From Parcubacteria bacterium C7867-001 (lineage in GTDB: Bacteria > Patescibacteriota > Minisyncoccia > Phycocordibacterales > Phycocordibacteraceae), in the NCBI GenBank assembly GCA_001189095.1, contig LFCK01000001.1, positions 20,133 to 84,132 of the forward strand: a stretch of 64,000 bases of DNA, given 5' to 3'. A program made the translations under genes and the position numbers. Position 1 is the first letter of the stretch. Each line of letters starts with the position of its first letter. The notes under the pieces are model-generated. The model had not been told where the DNA came from. It was given only the letters and a program-made list of their open reading frames with translations, and did not search any database. Shown piece by piece: positions 21,520 to 33,057 of the stretch.

Positions 21520-22674
21520 CTAGCGGATGGTCGCGTTGTATTCGTTCGTGGTGGTTTCCTCCAGCTTTTTGTGGAGCGCATCAATTTCTTCGTTCGTAAG
21601 CGTGCGATCGAGGGAACGGTAGGTGATGCGGTAGGCGTAGCTCATCTTGTCTGCGCCGAATTTCTCATCGTTTTCGTATTTATCGAGAAGCGAAACATCT
21701 TCCACAAGATCCCCCGCCACTTCGCGCGCGAGATCGAAGAAGTTATTCGGGACGAAATCCTTTCCGACAATGAAGGAGATATCGCGGACGATAGGAGGGA
21801 ACTTGCTCACTTCCTTGAACTCCGTTCCGAGAACAAGCTGCTTCTTCACACGTTCGTCGTCCGACCAAAGAAGGCGGATGTCCGGAAGAGACATGGAGGT
21901 AATAGCGAGTCGTTCGAGACCGAATCCGAACGCCCAGCCGTGATAGCCGGTGACGCCCATCTTCTCGAGCACGGATTTCTTTGGCATGCCGCTGCCAAGA
22001 ATCTCAAGCCACTTTCCCTTTGCTGGGCCTTCGGCCGCCGTGCCCTCGACGTCGAGTTCAACTTCAAACGACGGATCGGTGTAGGGGAACGTGTCGGTGT
22101 TAATCCGAAATTTCTGCTCCGGGCCGAATACAGCATGCACAATATCCCCGAGCACTTTCTTGAGGTCGTCGGGTTCGACAGGCATTGAATCAGGTGCGAT
22201 GTACCAACCTCCGAACTGATGGAAGACGTTCATGTGACGGCTATCGATTTCGTCCTTGCGGTAGACCTTGCCGAAGCAGAGTGCGCCCATCGCTTCGCCC
22301 TTTGCAATTCGTTCTTTGATGGCAGGATCGTTGAGGTAGTAGTACCAGAATACGGTGTCGTGGGTACGCAGAATGTTCTTTTCGTCAGCGTAGTATGTGT
22401 CCGAGGTAGAACGAGCGGGGTGGTCGGCAGGGAAGTCGAAGAGATCGAAGGAAATGTTGGCCGGAACGATTTCTGGGATTTCAATAATATCGAATCCAGA
22501 CAAGGCCGGCACCTTCTTCACGCGCTCGACGATTTCGTGGAGCGGGCTTCCTTGTGTGCGGGAAAGGTCGGGCATCGAAAGGTAGCGCTTCATGCGGAGC
22601 GCCTCGAAATCCGAGCGGGACTCAAGCTCTCCCCGCAATCGCGTTTCGTCGCTTCGATCGATTTTTATATCCAT
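21520..22674 (-). CDS. pheS: Phenylalanine--tRNA ligase, single-chain form (PheS-like catalytic domain fused to a C-terminal FDX-ACB anticodon-binding domain)
   Basis: FPYTDPSFEVEL matches the class II PheS motif. The C-terminus has RDISFIV...LLDKYEN...KMSYAYRITYRSLDRTLTNEEI, which resembles the PheT C-terminal FDX-ACB domain. No pheT is adjacent. Confidence 0.75.
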   Translation of the reverse strand: MDIKIDRSDETRLRGELESRSDFEALRMKRYLSMPDLSRTQGSPLHEIVERVKKVPALSGFDIIEIPEIVPANISFDLFDFPADHPARSTSDTYYADEKNILRTHDTVFWYYYLNDPAIKERIAKGEAMGALCFGKVYRKDEIDSRHMNVFHQFGGWYIAPDSMPVEPDDLKKVLGDIVHAVFGPEQKFRINTDTFPYTDPSFEVELDVEGTAAEGPAKGKWLEILGSGMPKKSVLEKMGVTGYHGWAFGFGLERLAITSMSLPDIRLLWSDDERVKKQLVLGTEFKEVSKFPPIVRDISFIVGKDFVPNNFFDLAREVAGDLVEDVSLLDKYENDEKFGADKMSYAYRITYRSLDRTLTNEEIDALHKKLEETTTNEYNATIR

Positions 22675-28208: not shown

Positions 28209-29351
28209 ATGCCAGAACGTCGTGAGACTCGCGACGGGATCGGGTTCTTCGGGTGGGCGGGTTTACTCGCACTCCTGTTGATTATTTTCGGAGGCGCGTT
28301 CCTGTATTGGGACACGCACCGGAACCCCAGCCTGTCGAATGATTCCGGCGCCGCGCCTTTTGCGGCTACGGAGGATACGAGTACTGAACCGGTGGAGGCG
28401 CGTGCGCCACCACCGGAAGAACCGGCTGCGGAAACCAAACCGCAGACCGACTCGCCGAAGCCGCGTAACACCGGCTTCTACTACGGTCTGAAGGATCCGA
28501 GCGAGCTCGCAAAGCTCGTCGAGGACAATCTTCGGAAGGATCCGACGGGGAAGACGATGATCAACCCCGAGAAATGCGCCAAGGACGGCTCATGCGCCAG
28601 TCCTCATGACTATCTCGTTATGTTCCAAGAGAACGACCCGGAAGCTGAGCTCACGTCAGTGGCCCAGCTCCCTGCGTTCCTGCGGAGCCTTGTCGCTCGG
28701 GACCCCGGTCCCGGCGAGTATCAGATGGCGTGCATCAGGATGCCGGCTCACACGCCGGACCTGCACTGCATGAAGCGTAAATTCCTGCCGGGCGAAAAGG
28801 TCTATGTCGACCCCAAGTCGAATAGGGCCATCTTTGCTTGGCACTGCACGAACCCCATCGATAAACCGGTGGAGCCACGGCAGTGCATGGAAATCATGGT
28901 GACCATCAAAGGCGAGCGTTCGATGAAGTTCGCGCACCTCGGCCCCGCCAAGGTGCAGGACTCGTGCCTTGCTTTGCGCAAGGTCGGAGTGGGAGTAATT
29001 CCGCTTCGCGAGTACGTCGGTGAGTGCGACTTCGACGCGGTTGCCGAGTTCTTCGGCGAACGCGTGCGCGAGGAGTACTGCGTTCCGGTAACACCCGGTA
29101 CGTACATTCTCACGGTCGCGGCGAAGCCTTACGGCGAGCCAAAGACCCGTCACTGGTGGGTGTTCTGTTGGTCGGATGAGGACGACGTGTCGTCGAACAC
29201 GATGCGCGTCCGAGACTTCGATTACATCGGCAACGATGTGCGTCGCGCGACGATTTACAACTCGCGCGATGAAATGGAAGACAAGACCTATCCCAAGAGC
29301 GTTTCGCACTTGTGGATTCCGTGGAGCGAAGAGCCCGGCACGGACCGCTAA
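28209..29351 (+). CDS. Membrane-anchored Cys-rich hypothetical protein (380 aa)
   Basis: A GAGGAGG RBS is present. There is an N-terminal TM anchor (FFGWAGLLALLLIIFGGAFLYW), a Pro/Glu-rich linker, and more than 10 Cys in the C-terminal domain. A terminator lies at 29358-29400. Confidence 0.55.
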   Translation: MPERRETRDGIGFFGWAGLLALLLIIFGGAFLYWDTHRNPSLSNDSGAAPFAATEDTSTEPVEARAPPPEEPAAETKPQTDSPKPRNTGFYYGLKDPSELAKLVEDNLRKDPTGKTMINPEKCAKDGSCASPHDYLVMFQENDPEAELTSVAQLPAFLRSLVARDPGPGEYQMACIRMPAHTPDLHCMKRKFLPGEKVYVDPKSNRAIFAWHCTNPIDKPVEPRQCMEIMVTIKGERSMKFAHLGPAKVQDSCLALRKVGVGVIPLREYVGECDFDAVAEFFGERVREEYCVPVTPGTYILTVAAKPYGEPKTRHWWVFCWSDEDDVSSNTMRVRDFDYIGNDVRRATIYNSRDEMEDKTYPKSVSHLWIPWSEEPGTDR

Positions 29352-29357
29352 GGGAAT

Positions 29358-29400
29358 GGACGGCACGCTTCGCGTGCCGTCCTGAACCTCCTCTTTTTTG
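29358..29400 (+). terminator. Intrinsic terminator after the Cys-rich protein gene
   Basis: ggacggcacgc-ttcg-cgtgccgtcc is followed by a T6 run about 10 nt downstream. Confidence 0.5.
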
Positions 29401-29464
29401 TACGCCCGCAAGGGCAGGGGCTTATTTATTACCTGTTTATCAATTGAACGAAACAACAACACGT

Positions 29465-31381
29465 ATGGTGTACTTCACCGAACAGATCGCATATGTGAAA
29501 TCGCGACCGATTGCCGTCGGTATTTTCGCCGTGCTTGCTGCCGTCTCGATCGGCATGACCGTCGCTGTCGCGACTGGCATGACGCTTCCGACGAAAGCGT
29601 TCGCGGACGTTGGTCCTCCCTGCTGCACGGAGCCGCCTCCTCCGCCCCCGCCTCCTCCACCACCCCCACCGCCTCCGTCGAGCTGTGATTCACTCACGGC
29701 GTCGGCAACGGAAATTAATTCAGGCGATGCGGTTACCCTTACGTGGCACACCACCAACGCCGACTCGGTCACTATCGATCAGGGTGTTGGTTCGGTGACA
29801 CCAGTCGGTTCAGGTTCGGTTGTCGTACATCCGACTGCGGATACGACGTACTCGGCTACCGTTACGGGTCCTGGCATCGTCAGCGAGCCGTGCCATGTTG
29901 AAGTAAAGATAAAGACCATCACTAACTCGGCGCAGTGCGTGTCGTTTGCGGCAAGCGCGTCGAACATCACGGCTGGTCAGGCAGTCACGCTTTCGTGGCA
30001 GACCCTTAATGCAACGGGAGTTACCATCGACAACGGTGTCGGTGCGGTAACGCCGATTGCGTCCGGTTCCACTGTCGTGCATCCGACCGCGAACACGACC
30101 TATACCGCAACGGTTGCAGGTGCAACCGGTAACGTGACGTGTGCCGCTTCGGTCCACATCACGACTATTACAACCGGTCCGTCTTGCGTCGCTCTTACAG
30201 CGAACAAGACCACGATTAGTTCTGGCGAAGCAGTCGTTCTCTCGTGGCAGACGCTTAATGCCACCTCGACCTCAATCGATCAGGGCATTGGTTCGGTTAC
30301 TCCAGTCGGTTCAGGTTCCGTAACGGTGAACCCAACCTCTGATACGACCTACACCATGACCACTGCGGGCGCTCCGGCGAACGACAGCTGTAAGGTGACG
30401 GTTCGCATTCAGACGAGTTCCTGCGTCGGCTCGTGCTGCACAGGCAGCTGCGGTGGCGGCGGTAATCCGAAGCCGAAGGTCATCCTTGGCGTCGCAACCT
30501 CTTCGCCGCTTGCCTTCGTGTATCTCTCGCAGGTTCCGTACACCGGTCTTGATCTCGGTCCGCTCGGTACCTTCATGTACTGGCTCGTGCTCATCCTCTG
30601 GAGCGCAGCAGCTGCGTACCTTGTGCTCTTCACGGCAGCCCCATTCGCTGCTCGTCGTCTCCGTTCGTTCGGGGAAGATGTGCGCGATGTTCTCAATGGA
30701 AATGAATCGGTCTCAACTGCGCCGGTCATGCAGGCATCGGCGGGGGATCATTCAGGTGGACATAATCTTATGCCGCACGCTCCAGTTCCAGTTCACCGTG
30801 CTCCAGAAGCATCGAGCACGTTCTCGAACTTCCACGGCTTCCGCTCGTTTGCGCAGGGCACTGAGCTTACGATCGATGATCTCGTGAAGGGACTCGCTCG
30901 CGAACACGCAGTACATGCTGCTCCAGTTGCGCATATCGAGGATCCGAAAGAAGATGCGTACGCGTTCTCGTCTGAACGAAATGTCGAGCCTATCGCCCCG
31001 CATCTTCCGACTGAAATAGGGAAGATTGAACCGATCATGGACGTATTCGCACACGCAATCGAAGTTCGTGGATTCATTTCCGCGCTCGTCGAGAAGGACA
31101 AGGAGGCGCTCTTCGGCGCACTTCGCCAAATCGTTCGCGGCGGCGGTAGCGTTGAGCACTTCCTTACGCAGGTCGCGCACGCACTCGATGATGTCTTCCG
31201 CTCGCGCATCGACGGTACGCCGGCAGATCCCGAGATGGTTCGCATCTGTGTGAACTGCGACACGCCGGTTCTTGAGCAGCTCGTCGGTCACTTTGCGACG
31301 GCAATCGACTCAAGCTACTCGACCGATGTCACGGCAGGTAAGATGGCGGTCACTCGCGCACTTACGACGCTCGAAGCGTAA
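29465..31381 (+). CDS. Modular membrane protein with six parts: signal/anchor; poly-Pro linker; three tandem Ig-like repeats of about 80 aa; a VPYTG motif; a TM helix; a C-terminal domain of about 240 aa
   Basis: The protein has PPPPPPPPPPPPPPP. The repeat consensus is AVTLxWxTxNAxxxxIDxGxGxVTPxxSGSxxVxPTxxTTY. Further downstream is SQVPYTGLDLGPLGTFMYWLVLILWSAAAAYLVLF followed by RRLR. The ORF-track start at 29312 overlaps the upstream gene and is rejected. Confidence 0.6.
   Translation: MVYFTEQIAYVKSRPIAVGIFAVLAAVSIGMTVAVATGMTLPTKAFADVGPPCCTEPPPPPPPPPPPPPPPSSCDSLTASATEINSGDAVTLTWHTTNADSVTIDQGVGSVTPVGSGSVVVHPTADTTYSATVTGPGIVSEPCHVEVKIKTITNSAQCVSFAASASNITAGQAVTLSWQTLNATGVTIDNGVGAVTPIASGSTVVHPTANTTYTATVAGATGNVTCAASVHITTITTGPSCVALTANKTTISSGEAVVLSWQTLNATSTSIDQGIGSVTPVGSGSVTVNPTSDTTYTMTTAGAPANDSCKVTVRIQTSSCVGSCCTGSCGGGGNPKPKVILGVATSSPLAFVYLSQVPYTGLDLGPLGTFMYWLVLILWSAAAAYLVLFTAAPFAARRLRSFGEDVRDVLNGNESVSTAPVMQASAGDHSGGHNLMPHAPVPVHRAPEASSTFSNFHGFRSFAQGTELTIDDLVKGLAREHAVHAAPVAHIEDPKEDAYAFSSERNVEPIAPHLPTEIGKIEPIMDVFAHAIEVRGFISALVEKDKEALFGALRQIVRGGGSVEHFLTQVAHALDDVFRSRIDGTPADPEMVRICVNCDTPVLEQLVGHFATAIDSSYSTDVTAGKMAVTRALTTLEA
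29630..29677 (+). repeat. CCN simple-sequence repeat encoding poly-proline
   Basis: The DNA is ccgcctcctccgcccccgcctcctccaccacccccaccgcctccg. Confidence 0.8.
29681..30415 (+). repeat. Three diverged tandem coding repeats (about 243 nt each)
   Basis: The repeats are recognisable at DNA level (gtcggttcaggttc...ccgac...acgac.ta.ac) and at protein level. Confidence 0.7.
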
Positions 31382-31394
31382 TATCTCTTACTAA

Positions 31395-31427
31395 AGAAAA
31401 CGGCCCGCCATAGGCGGGCCGTTTTCT
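31395..31427. terminator. Bidirectional terminator; a near-identical copy lies at 57381-57410
   Basis: gaaaacggcccgcc-ata-ggcgggccgttttct. Confidence 0.65.
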
Positions 31428-31572
31428 ATTTCTCGTTCGTGATGCGCTCGTAGCAGGCTTTGCAGAGGTGCATTTTTTTCGCCATGCCGTTTTCGTCTGG
31501 AGGAGAGAACAGGAGCCCGCCGAAGTCGGTGAGTTCGGTCTTACAAAAATCGCAGTGGGGAGCAATAGCCAT
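31426..31572 (-). CDS. Small zinc-ribbon protein (48 aa), translationally coupled to thrS
   Basis: The minus strand reads MAIAPHCDFCKTELTDFGGLLFSPPDENGMAKKMHLCKACYERITNEK. There are two CxxC pairs. The start overlaps the thrS stop as TAATG. A terminator follows immediately. The ORF is shorter than the ORF-track cutoff. Confidence 0.45.
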   Translation of the reverse strand: MAIAPHCDFCKTELTDFGGLLFSPPDENGMAKKMHLCKACYERITNEK

Positions 31573-32816
31573 TAGCGTACGCGCTTCTTGATTTCGTCCT
31601 CTGTGCGAGCAGTAAAGTCGCCGACGCTCATCGCGTCGAGCTTGCCATGGTCGCGACTGTCGACTGATACGGTGCTGTCCTCGATTTCCTTATCGCCGAC
31701 CACGAGGAGATACGGAATCTTCTCAGTCTTAGCGTTCCTGATTTTCTTGCCAAGCGTCTCGTTCGACTCATCGAGCTCAACACGGAGCCCTGCTTCCTTG
31801 AGGGAGGCAAGTACTTGGTAGGCGTACTCGCTATGCTTTTCCGAGACGGGAAGAATGCGTGCGTGAACGGGAGAGAGCCAGAGTGGGAATGCGCCTGCAT
31901 ATTTCTCGATGAGGAAGGCAATGATGCGTTCGATAGAACCTATAGAGGATCGATGAACCACGAAGCATCCGTGCTCCTTGCCGTCTTCTCCCATGTAAAC
32001 GAGATCGAATTTCTTCGGAGAGGAAAGATCGTATTGCACGGTGAAAGCGGTGTCCTCCTTACCATTCACATTCTTCATCTGGATGTCTATCTTCGGTCCG
32101 TAGAACGCAGCTTCGCCAGCCGCTTCCACGAAGTCGACACCTCGTTTTTGCATGCACTCGCGCAGAAGCGCTTCCGCTTTTTCCCAGCCAGCATCGTCCT
32201 TGTAGTATTTTTCAGTGTCCGCACGGTCGCCGAGCGAGAGGCGGTAGGTGTAGTCCTTGCCCATCTCGAGTCCGAGCACGCCGTTCGCGTACTCGATAAG
32301 GTCGAGCGCTTTTGCGACTTCCTCGACTGCCTGCTCTTCAGACGAGCAGATGACATGCGCATCGGAAAGGCAGAATGAGCGCACGCGCTGAAGGCCCATG
32401 AGTTCGCCTGACTGCTCATAGCGGTAGAGTTTCGCGATTTCTGCGTATCGAACAGGGAACTCGCGGTAGCTATGAGGAGCGCGGAGGAAAAGTTCGAAGT
32501 GATGCGGGCAGGTCATCGGGCGAAGCATGAATTTCTCGTCCTCATCCTCGATAGGAGCGTACATCCCGTCTTTGTAGTGCGGATAGTGGCCGGATTTTTC
32601 GTAGAGCTCGAGCTTCGCCATGTCAGGCGTATACACGTGCTCGTAGCCACGCTTTATTTCTTCATCAACGATGAATCGTTCGAGTTCGCGACGTATCGTA
32701 GCGCCTTTAGGAGTCCAGAGCGGAAGGCCTTTGCCGACCGTCGGAGAAAAAGTGAAAAGATCGAGCTCTCGTCCTAGTCGCTTATGGTCGTTTTCTTTTT
32801 CTTGCGAGGGTTCCAT
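31572..32816 (-). CDS. thrS: Threonine--tRNA ligase, catalytic plus anticodon-binding core only (no N-terminal TGS/editing domains)
   Basis: The protein starts MEPSQEKENDHKRLGRELDLFTF at the class II core. FVVHRSSIGSIERIIAFLIE and the MTCPHH motif are present. The upstream ORF extension has no conserved sequence. Confidence 0.8.
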   Translation of the reverse strand: MEPSQEKENDHKRLGRELDLFTFSPTVGKGLPLWTPKGATIRRELERFIVDEEIKRGYEHVYTPDMAKLELYEKSGHYPHYKDGMYAPIEDEDEKFMLRPMTCPHHFELFLRAPHSYREFPVRYAEIAKLYRYEQSGELMGLQRVRSFCLSDAHVICSSEEQAVEEVAKALDLIEYANGVLGLEMGKDYTYRLSLGDRADTEKYYKDDAGWEKAEALLRECMQKRGVDFVEAAGEAAFYGPKIDIQMKNVNGKEDTAFTVQYDLSSPKKFDLVYMGEDGKEHGCFVVHRSSIGSIERIIAFLIEKYAGAFPLWLSPVHARILPVSEKHSEYAYQVLASLKEAGLRVELDESNETLGKKIRNAKTEKIPYLLVVGDKEIEDSTVSVDSRDHGKLDAMSVGDFTARTEDEIKKRVR

Positions 32817-32875
32817 ATAGGGAGGAATATAGCATAAAAAGGGAAGCGGCGGCCCAGAGGGCCGCCGCGCGGAGG

Positions 32876-33025
32876 TTAGATACGCTTCGTATCGATGTGC
32901 CGATATTTGTCGGCAACCGCATCCGAAAGTCGCTCGAGCTCCTTTTGTGACATTCCTGCACAAGGGAGCAGACCTCGCAGCACTGCTACGTGCTGTTTTT
33001 TCTCATCCGGAGTCAATACGGTCAT
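32876..33025 (-). CDS. Possible small ORF (49 aa) between dnaE and thrS
   Basis: The minus strand reads MTVLTPDEKKQHVAVLRGLLPCAGMSQKELERLSDAVADKYRHIDTKRI. It is followed by the hairpin gcggcggccc...gggccgccgc. This is speculative. Confidence 0.25.
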   Translation of the reverse strand: MTVLTPDEKKQHVAVLRGLLPCAGMSQKELERLSDAVADKYRHIDTKRI

Positions 33026-33057
33026 TGGGCACGTTCTCCTTCCTGAAATATATTATG

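Follow-up and report, generated by a model that had tools for sequence, protein, structure and literature searches.

In this work, we examined a stretch of 64,000 nucleotides (nt) from Parcubacteria bacterium C7867-001 (assembly GCA_001189095.1, contig LFCK01000001.1, positions 20,133 to 84,132), referred to in the following as the window, with a focus on its gene for threonyl-tRNA synthetase (ThrRS), thrS, and on the small open reading frame (ORF) that follows it. On the minus strand, thrS spans 31572..32816 and codes for 414 amino acids (aa) plus stop, comprising a catalytic core and an anticodon-binding domain and neither the TGS (N1) nor the N2 domain, while the small ORF (31426..31572, minus strand) codes for a predicted 48-aa Cys4 zinc-ribbon microprotein (MAIAPHCDFC...HLCKACYERITNEK) from a large family of the Candidate Phyla Radiation (CPR) and DPANN. 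Base 31572 is common to the TAA stop of thrS and the ATG of the small ORF. The resulting TAATG overlap at 31570..31574 (minus strand), which a first-pass annotation of this DNA had described between ThrRS and a double-CxxC ORF, was confirmed by reading the sequence and is a candidate termination-reinitiation site. The small ORF had also been described as ending at a strong terminator; indeed, its TAG stop (31428-31426) shares 2 nt with the hairpin of a bidirectional intrinsic terminator at 31395..31427 (either strand), which has a stem of 15 base pairs (10 G–C) and a 3-nt loop. With an A run on one side and a T run on the other, the hairpin can end transcription from both directions; it serves the thrS/small-ORF transcript as well as the convergent gene of a 689-aa surface protein.

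A mechanical ORF containing ThrRS begins further upstream with a TTG start (32963-31572, minus strand, 463 aa). The true start of thrS is nevertheless the ATG at 32816-32814, with the protein opening MEPSQEKENDHKRLGRELDLF, and the 49-codon 5' extension is non-coding, in agreement with the earlier view that it is spurious. We base this assignment on a G+C-rich intrinsic terminator between dnaE and thrS (32846..32868, minus strand; 10 G–C pairs, then TTCCCTTTTT), which sits inside the extension, on relatives that start at the equivalent position, many of them with in-frame stops 0-15 codons upstream, and on tblastn searches with the N2 domains of E. coli ThrRS and of a relative (L059, see below), which found no N2-coding sequence in any frame of the 64-kb window.

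At 241 nt, the spacer between dnaE and thrS (32817-33057, minus strand) is unusually long, the two genes being 4-11 nt apart or overlapping in relatives. A promoter-like site is located at 33080-33052, a non-conserved 49-aa ORF (33025-32876) stops 8 nt short of the terminator (32868-32846), and a TATATT box (32831-32826) lies 9 nt ahead of the thrS ATG. No Shine-Dalgarno sequence was seen ahead of thrS, and no T-box or other Rfam leader was detected between dnaE and thrS at gathering or E-value thresholds, the sub-threshold Rfam matches at the terminators being hairpin matches only. These spacer features could point to a near-leaderless thrS mRNA or to attenuation-like control.

The window ThrRS contains only two Pfam domains, tRNA-synt_2b (PF00587) and HGTP_anticodon (PF03129). 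It scores 492.9 bits against the NCBIfam model thrS TIGR00418 (cut-off 383.65), covering profile positions 167-563 of 565, and its residues 10-412 align with residues 243-635 of E. coli ThrRS at 36% identity (BLASTP); among solved structures, S. aureus ThrRS (residues 237-640) matches best (E=7.5e-127). With the alignment beginning at E. coli residue 243, neither TGS (N1) nor the HxxxH and CxxxH motifs of N2 are present, and the proposed absence of both domains is thus borne out by Pfam, by TIGR00418 and by the E. coli alignment alike. From its sequence, the gene is assigned as a bacterial-type threonyl-tRNA synthetase of truncated architecture. The zinc ligands C103, H154 and H288 are conserved (E. 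coli C334, H385 and H511), as are the residues binding threonine and ATP (R132, E134, D152, Y239, K242, Q261 and R297). Because all of these are retained, the enzyme should charge tRNA-Thr via the usual zinc-dependent class II active site. By analogy with what is known of delta-N ThrRS, on the other hand, it should be devoid of post-transfer editing of Ser-tRNA-Thr in cis, since N2 is absent.

To place this architecture among related enzymes, we used the best 80 of 447 thrS relatives (numbered L001-L080; 68-81% identity) from a scan with one genome per species. All 80 are Patescibacteria, mostly Paceibacteria/Kaiserbacteria-like. N2 status was evaluable in the 76 relatives whose available upstream sequence reached 700 nt or more, and N2 is absent from 75 of them, so that the short ThrRS is typical of its Paceibacteria clade. 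An upstream start giving a full-length ThrRS in homologs, which the first-pass annotation had named as the observation that would speak against its reading, was not encountered in these 75, and N2 was found only in L059. Here N2 is fused to ThrRS, still shows both HxxxH and CRGxH, and shares 40% identity with its E. coli counterpart. In L052, thrS starts at a contig edge, and the assembly carries its N2 on a different contig. The more divergent relatives L100, L175, L177 and L179 carry N2 and are basal in a neighbour-joining tree of ThrRS, in which N2-less L119 is the sister of N2-containing L175; we therefore conclude that N2 was lost independently. The ancestral ThrRS was likely N2-containing without TGS, and the distribution over the tree indicates that N2 was lost secondarily and more than once, with the deeper relatives and one nested lineage keeping it. 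Between N2-containing and N2-less ThrRSs of Patescibacteria, core identity is ~70%.

These data bear on the question whether the short thrS is a mis-assembly, a frameshift artefact or a pseudogene, with a full-length or split N2-containing ThrRS encoded elsewhere. The existence of N2-containing relatives, the occurrence of N2 and core as two overlapping ORFs in L175, L177 and L179, and the inspection of only part of the genome are in its favour. However, the short start is immediately preceded by a terminator, the window is free of N2-like sequence, and the catalytic residues are intact. The same short form additionally recurs in 75 independent assemblies, many with in-frame stops just upstream, and the apparent split genes can be traced to frame-shifted overlaps or contig-end fragments. 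We consequently regard an artefact or a split gene as very unlikely.

A trans-editing gene was sought in the 64-kb window for the source organism and within 4 kb around thrS for the relatives (n=80). Neither N2 nor an AlaX-like or other trans-editing gene was detected in the window by tblastn and Pfam scans of 15 window ORFs, the sole match being a spurious one inside the gene for phenylalanyl-tRNA synthetase (PheRS), and none of the 80 relatives has a free-standing editing gene within the range searched. Homology searches with the L059 N2 domain returned many 'partial ThrRS' proteins of 165-335 aa, five of which were inspected. P0366 and P0282 were rejected as free-standing N2 proteins, being contig-end fragments, with P0282 originating from the same assembly as L052. 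A free-standing N2 is likewise improbable for L175 (2816-4557), L177 (4001-5742) and L179 (4001-5834), where the N2 and core ORFs, called separately, overlap by ~40-50 nt in different frames. Two of these overlapping pairs lie on contigs named 'contig_NNNNN', which, judging from the name only, might be long-read assemblies. The overlaps are probably frameshift errors, and genuine split thrS genes are not the likeliest explanation for L175, L177 and L179.

A comparison of the motif-2 loop over 87 aligned ThrRS sequences revealed a signature, SGELMGLQRVR (window residues 136-146, ~32411-32379, minus strand), in the N2-less enzymes of the crown clade; 78 of the 87 sequences have M140, and 76 have Q143. 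At the first variable position, N2-containing enzymes, including the nested L059 and L052, carry Ser, and the more distant ones Asn, Phe or His, while the residues at the second position are varied. L119, with its independent loss of N2, does not show the signature. The signature may compensate for a lost acceptor-arm clamp, but it could equally be the mark of one ancestral event.

Turning to the small ORF, the cysteines of the 48-aa protein are arranged as C7-x2-C10 and C37-x2-C40. In the AlphaFold2 model (predicted local distance difference test score, pLDDT, 83.5), strands 17-22 and 33-37 are followed by a helix at 38-47. The confident model presents the protein as a Cys4 zinc ribbon with two CxxC knuckles bracketing a beta-hairpin, and zinc binding is accordingly predicted. 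The ORF had been considered unannotated, whereas GenBank already lists an identical protein, ABA06_00265, a hypothetical protein of Parcubacteria bacterium C7867-001. A first search yielded three homologues. With a four-sequence profile, 121 homologues of 43-82 aa were retrieved, all at E≤3e-16, and an exhaustive profile search reached at least 1882 clusters (50% identity) at E≤1e-3 and 426 at E≤1e-10. The family consensus reads MAIKPxCDxCkkELxdFGaLLFSPPdxxxxvKKfHiCkxCYxxi, with strict conservation of C7, G18, P24, P25, K33 and C37 and almost strict conservation of C10, C40 and H35. The protein belongs to no Pfam, NCBIfam or PDB family: its best Pfam match, DUF2197, reaches 14.3 bits at a cut-off of 22.2, and the Pfam matches across 120 family members are all below threshold.

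Named bacterial members of the family come from Parcubacteria, Levybacteria, Saccharimonadales and other Patescibacteria, named archaeal ones from Pacearchaeota, Aenigmatarchaeota and further archaea. The archaeal loci have archaeal neighbours (a Cbf5/Pus10-type pseudouridine synthase, EF-1alpha), and archaeal and bacterial members share 58-64% identity. Within the family, a recurrent variant of 77-81 aa (P0069, P0105, P0117, P0121) is extended at its C terminus by a conserved tail, ...ITRLxIxEIEDVLSLGPAWLNYTRKxKR. In other variants of 97-98 aa (P0124, P0140), two ribbons are fused in tandem, and longer members comprise one DUF1653 fusion (P0168) and otherwise C-terminal tails without assignment.

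Judged by this conservation, the small ORF is a genuine gene of a large uncharacterised family. That it might be a chance ORF or the decayed remnant of a larger gene, the latter having been suggested by the first-pass annotation, could be argued from its shortness, the lack of a visible ribosome-binding site and its absence from this position in most relatives. Against this stand the identical database protein, more than 120 homologues at E≤3e-16 and the 1882 clusters at E≤1e-3, as well as invariant metal ligands and a confidently modelled fold, so that conservation refutes the idea and leaves it with practically no probability.

The link between the small gene and thrS is considerably less regular than the overlap in the window suggests. 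Among 79 genome loci in which the thrS stop codon is present, the small gene occurs after thrS, or within 4 kb of it, in L029 only. Conservation downstream of thrS, proposed earlier as a check, is limited to this one relative among the 79 loci. In the remaining 78 loci the small gene is missing after thrS despite widely kept synteny of rnhB, dnaE and thrS together with the convergent surface-protein gene; dnaE is kept beside thrS in 63 of 80 loci, and in several relatives the convergent gene abuts thrS, leaving no space for a small gene. Altogether, thrS followed by the small gene was found in five distinct genomes, namely the window, L029, L100, L119 and L156, the latter three from metagenomes. 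In the four homologues other than that of the window, the stop-to-ATG junctions are TAACCATG, TAGTATG, TAATATG and TAACTATG, with spacers of 1-3 nt. The ThrRS of L100 has 586 aa and retains N2 with the small gene alongside, and the small gene is therefore not tied to the loss of editing; its presence does not correlate with N2 status.

Elsewhere, the gene context of the family is variable. One member is placed precisely inside the conserved ATP-synthase operon (L082 5001-5153, also L083), where a single nucleotide separates it from atpD (beta subunit) on one side and from atpC (epsilon subunit) on the other; another follows a NUDIX gene (L084), and in L104 the small gene comes straight after dnaE, without thrS. 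Further members are found after infB-rbfA, before a transketolase subunit and, in archaea, before UbiA. By crude ORF calling, 22 of 47 loci have the small gene abutting the same-strand gene ahead of it, compared to 29% of background gene pairs (Fisher p=0.018), which suggests that it is promoter-less and dependent on upstream translation wherever it is located.

Two explanations would tie the small protein to ThrRS or to a broader partner. In the first, it is a dedicated ThrRS accessory, kept stoichiometric by translational coupling and acting as a clamp for the tRNA-Thr acceptor arm, as a fidelity or regulatory factor or as a zinc donor. This would agree with the tight spacing of 0-3 nt behind thrS in all five genomes, over ThrRS identities down to 47%, and with ThrRS itself being a zinc enzyme. 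It is, however, at odds with the single occurrence among 79 loci, with the N2-containing ThrRS of L100, with the L104 gene located after dnaE without thrS, and with the members that neighbour atp, rbfA, transketolase, NUDIX or UbiA genes or come from archaea. For the same reasons (one of 79 loci, N2-containing L100, unrelated operons, archaeal members), the trans-acting factor for ThrRS put forward in the first-pass annotation is not supported; a dedicated accessory is quite improbable, and the small protein is probably not a ThrRS partner. A role as an editing substitute was rejected outright, since a zinc ribbon of 48 residues cannot hold a deacylase fold. The second explanation, in which the microprotein is an undescribed housekeeping factor, peculiar to the ultra-small CPR bacteria and DPANN archaea, on a component common to both domains of life (such as ribosome, RNA polymerase or tRNA) and acts with ThrRS in the Paceibacteria lineage where it is coupled to thrS, e.g. 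by stabilising the tRNA-Thr acceptor arm, appears improbable to us as well.

The scattered positions could alternatively indicate that the small gene is a mobile, selfish or phage-derived cassette and the position behind thrS its insertion site. The precise insertion or deletion within the conserved frame of dnaE, thrS and convergent gene fits such a history, as do the placement between atpD and atpC in L082 with a 1-nt gap on either side, the ~60% identity of CPR and DPANN copies, which suggests inter-domain transfer, and weak matches to phrog_2999 in 17 of 120 members together with three IMG/VR contigs. These three viral contigs nevertheless compare with 356 metagenome matches, the contexts described above showed no sign of a transposase, an integrase or flanking repeats, and the strong purifying conservation is typical of a cellular function. 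A mobile origin is thus possible, yet unlikely.

We therefore favour, with a probability of roughly 0.7, a reading in which two independent features stand side by side: a natural delta-N ThrRS and a free-standing zinc-ribbon microprotein. According to this model, N2 would have been lost secondarily in the Paceibacteria clade through reductive evolution, giving rise to a delta-N ThrRS that would charge tRNA-Thr without post-transfer editing of Ser-tRNA-Thr in cis. In the lineage of the window, the small gene would be carried as the last gene of the thrS transcript, the small protein would probably be made by termination-reinitiation at UAAUG, and the common transcript would stop at the shared terminator. 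The microprotein itself would probably use zinc to bind a conserved macromolecule, nucleic acid or another, in a general role and not in one specific to ThrRS or to editing. The adjacency of thrS and small gene is lineage-specific and patchily retained, with no evidence in it for a ThrRS-specific factor.

It should be noted that some points weigh against this model. The enrichment of abutting upstream genes has crude ORF calling as its basis. Adjacency of thrS and the small ORF at 0-3 nt recurs where the ThrRSs share only 47-50% identity with that of the window (L100, L119), and such recurrence in divergent lineages makes a functional or regulatory link to thrS conceivable, although we give a real link behind the tight coupling only a small chance. 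Finally, a trans-editing factor may be encoded elsewhere in the genome, the search having covered the 64-kb window, part of a contig of at least 390 kb.

Two other genes of the window deserve mention. The gene convergent with the small ORF (29312-31381, plus strand) codes for the 689-aa protein, in which a poly-proline tract is combined with ~3 tandem repeats of ~90 aa with the pattern SG.AVTLSW.T.NA....ID.G.G.VTP..SGS..V.PT..TTY. This protein has no Pfam match; 47 of 80 related loci have a homologue in the same convergent place. The window additionally encodes a PheRS of 384 aa (21520-22674, minus strand), in which PF01409 (E=5.8e-51) and the FDX-ACB domain PF03147 (E=1.8e-23) are combined in a single polypeptide. 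In the PDB, it matches human mitochondrial PheRS best (E=3e-53), as opposed to ~1e-30 for bacterial alpha subunits. On this domain content, the enzyme is classified as a monomeric, mitochondrial-type PheRS with a class II core fused to FDX-ACB, an architecture which would imply that there is neither a beta subunit nor PheRS editing. A PheRS without the editing beta subunit is consistent with a lineage-wide loss of synthetase proofreading.

Our results extend the loss of editing domains, familiar from host-dependent organisms, to a large Patescibacteria clade. Close relatives with and without N2, a domain lost more than once, constitute a natural series for studying tolerance of, or compensation for, Ser-tRNA-Thr. 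The idea of a zinc-ribbon partner in place of ThrRS editing is unsupported; the strongly conserved, unnamed family of ~50-residue zinc ribbons in CPR and DPANN is nonetheless a reasonable target for microprotein studies.

Among known systems, one of the closest counterparts of the window ThrRS is the engineered E. coli delta-N construct (residues 242-642; PDB 1EVK/1EVL/1FYF/1KOG), which aminoacylates tRNA-Thr and cannot clear Ser-tRNA-Thr. Window residues 10-412 correspond to chain residues 2-394 of this 401-aa construct (E=1.6e-79), with the same zinc ligands and active site. In contrast to this laboratory truncation, the window enzyme is natural and clade-wide, shares 36% identity with it and belongs to a crown clade with its own motif-2-loop signature, SGELMGLQRVR. 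For the small protein, the matches to Pfam Fin, Gin, DUF4428, DUF7685 and DZR_2, to eS21 and to the archaeal Zn-ribbon translation protein 6SW9_C are all sub-threshold; unlike these small Cys4 zinc ribbons, the family has its specific signature MAIKPxCDxC...FGALLFSPP...KKxHxCxxCY, and no shared function can be derived from the comparison.

In Crenarchaeota, the catalytic ThrRS-cat is partnered by a free-standing, DTD-like trans-editing protein, ThrRS-ed. There, a shortened thrS encodes a catalytic-only ThrRS (PMC7373986), and in this respect the window enzyme is alike. It differs in being of bacterial type and in that neither ThrRS-ed nor a bacterial N2-type gene is found in the window or near thrS of the relatives, its 48-aa neighbour being no homologue of an editing domain. 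In the literature searched, we found no specific description of ThrRS truncation or of a monomeric PheRS in CPR. Loss of post-transfer editing is documented for host-restricted organisms with reduced genomes (PMC11415595, PMC7373986). The editing-deficient synthetases of Mycoplasma (ThrRS, PheRS and LeuRS) and microsporidia, the yeast mitochondrial ThrRS MST1 and mitochondrial PheRS resemble the present case in combining the loss of editing with reduced genomes, and the mitochondrial ThrRS 3UGQ is matched by the window ThrRS. Unlike in these host-restricted systems, however, the N1 and N2 region of the window ThrRS is not mutated but wholly deleted, and the lineage concerned is that of the CPR/Patescibacteria.

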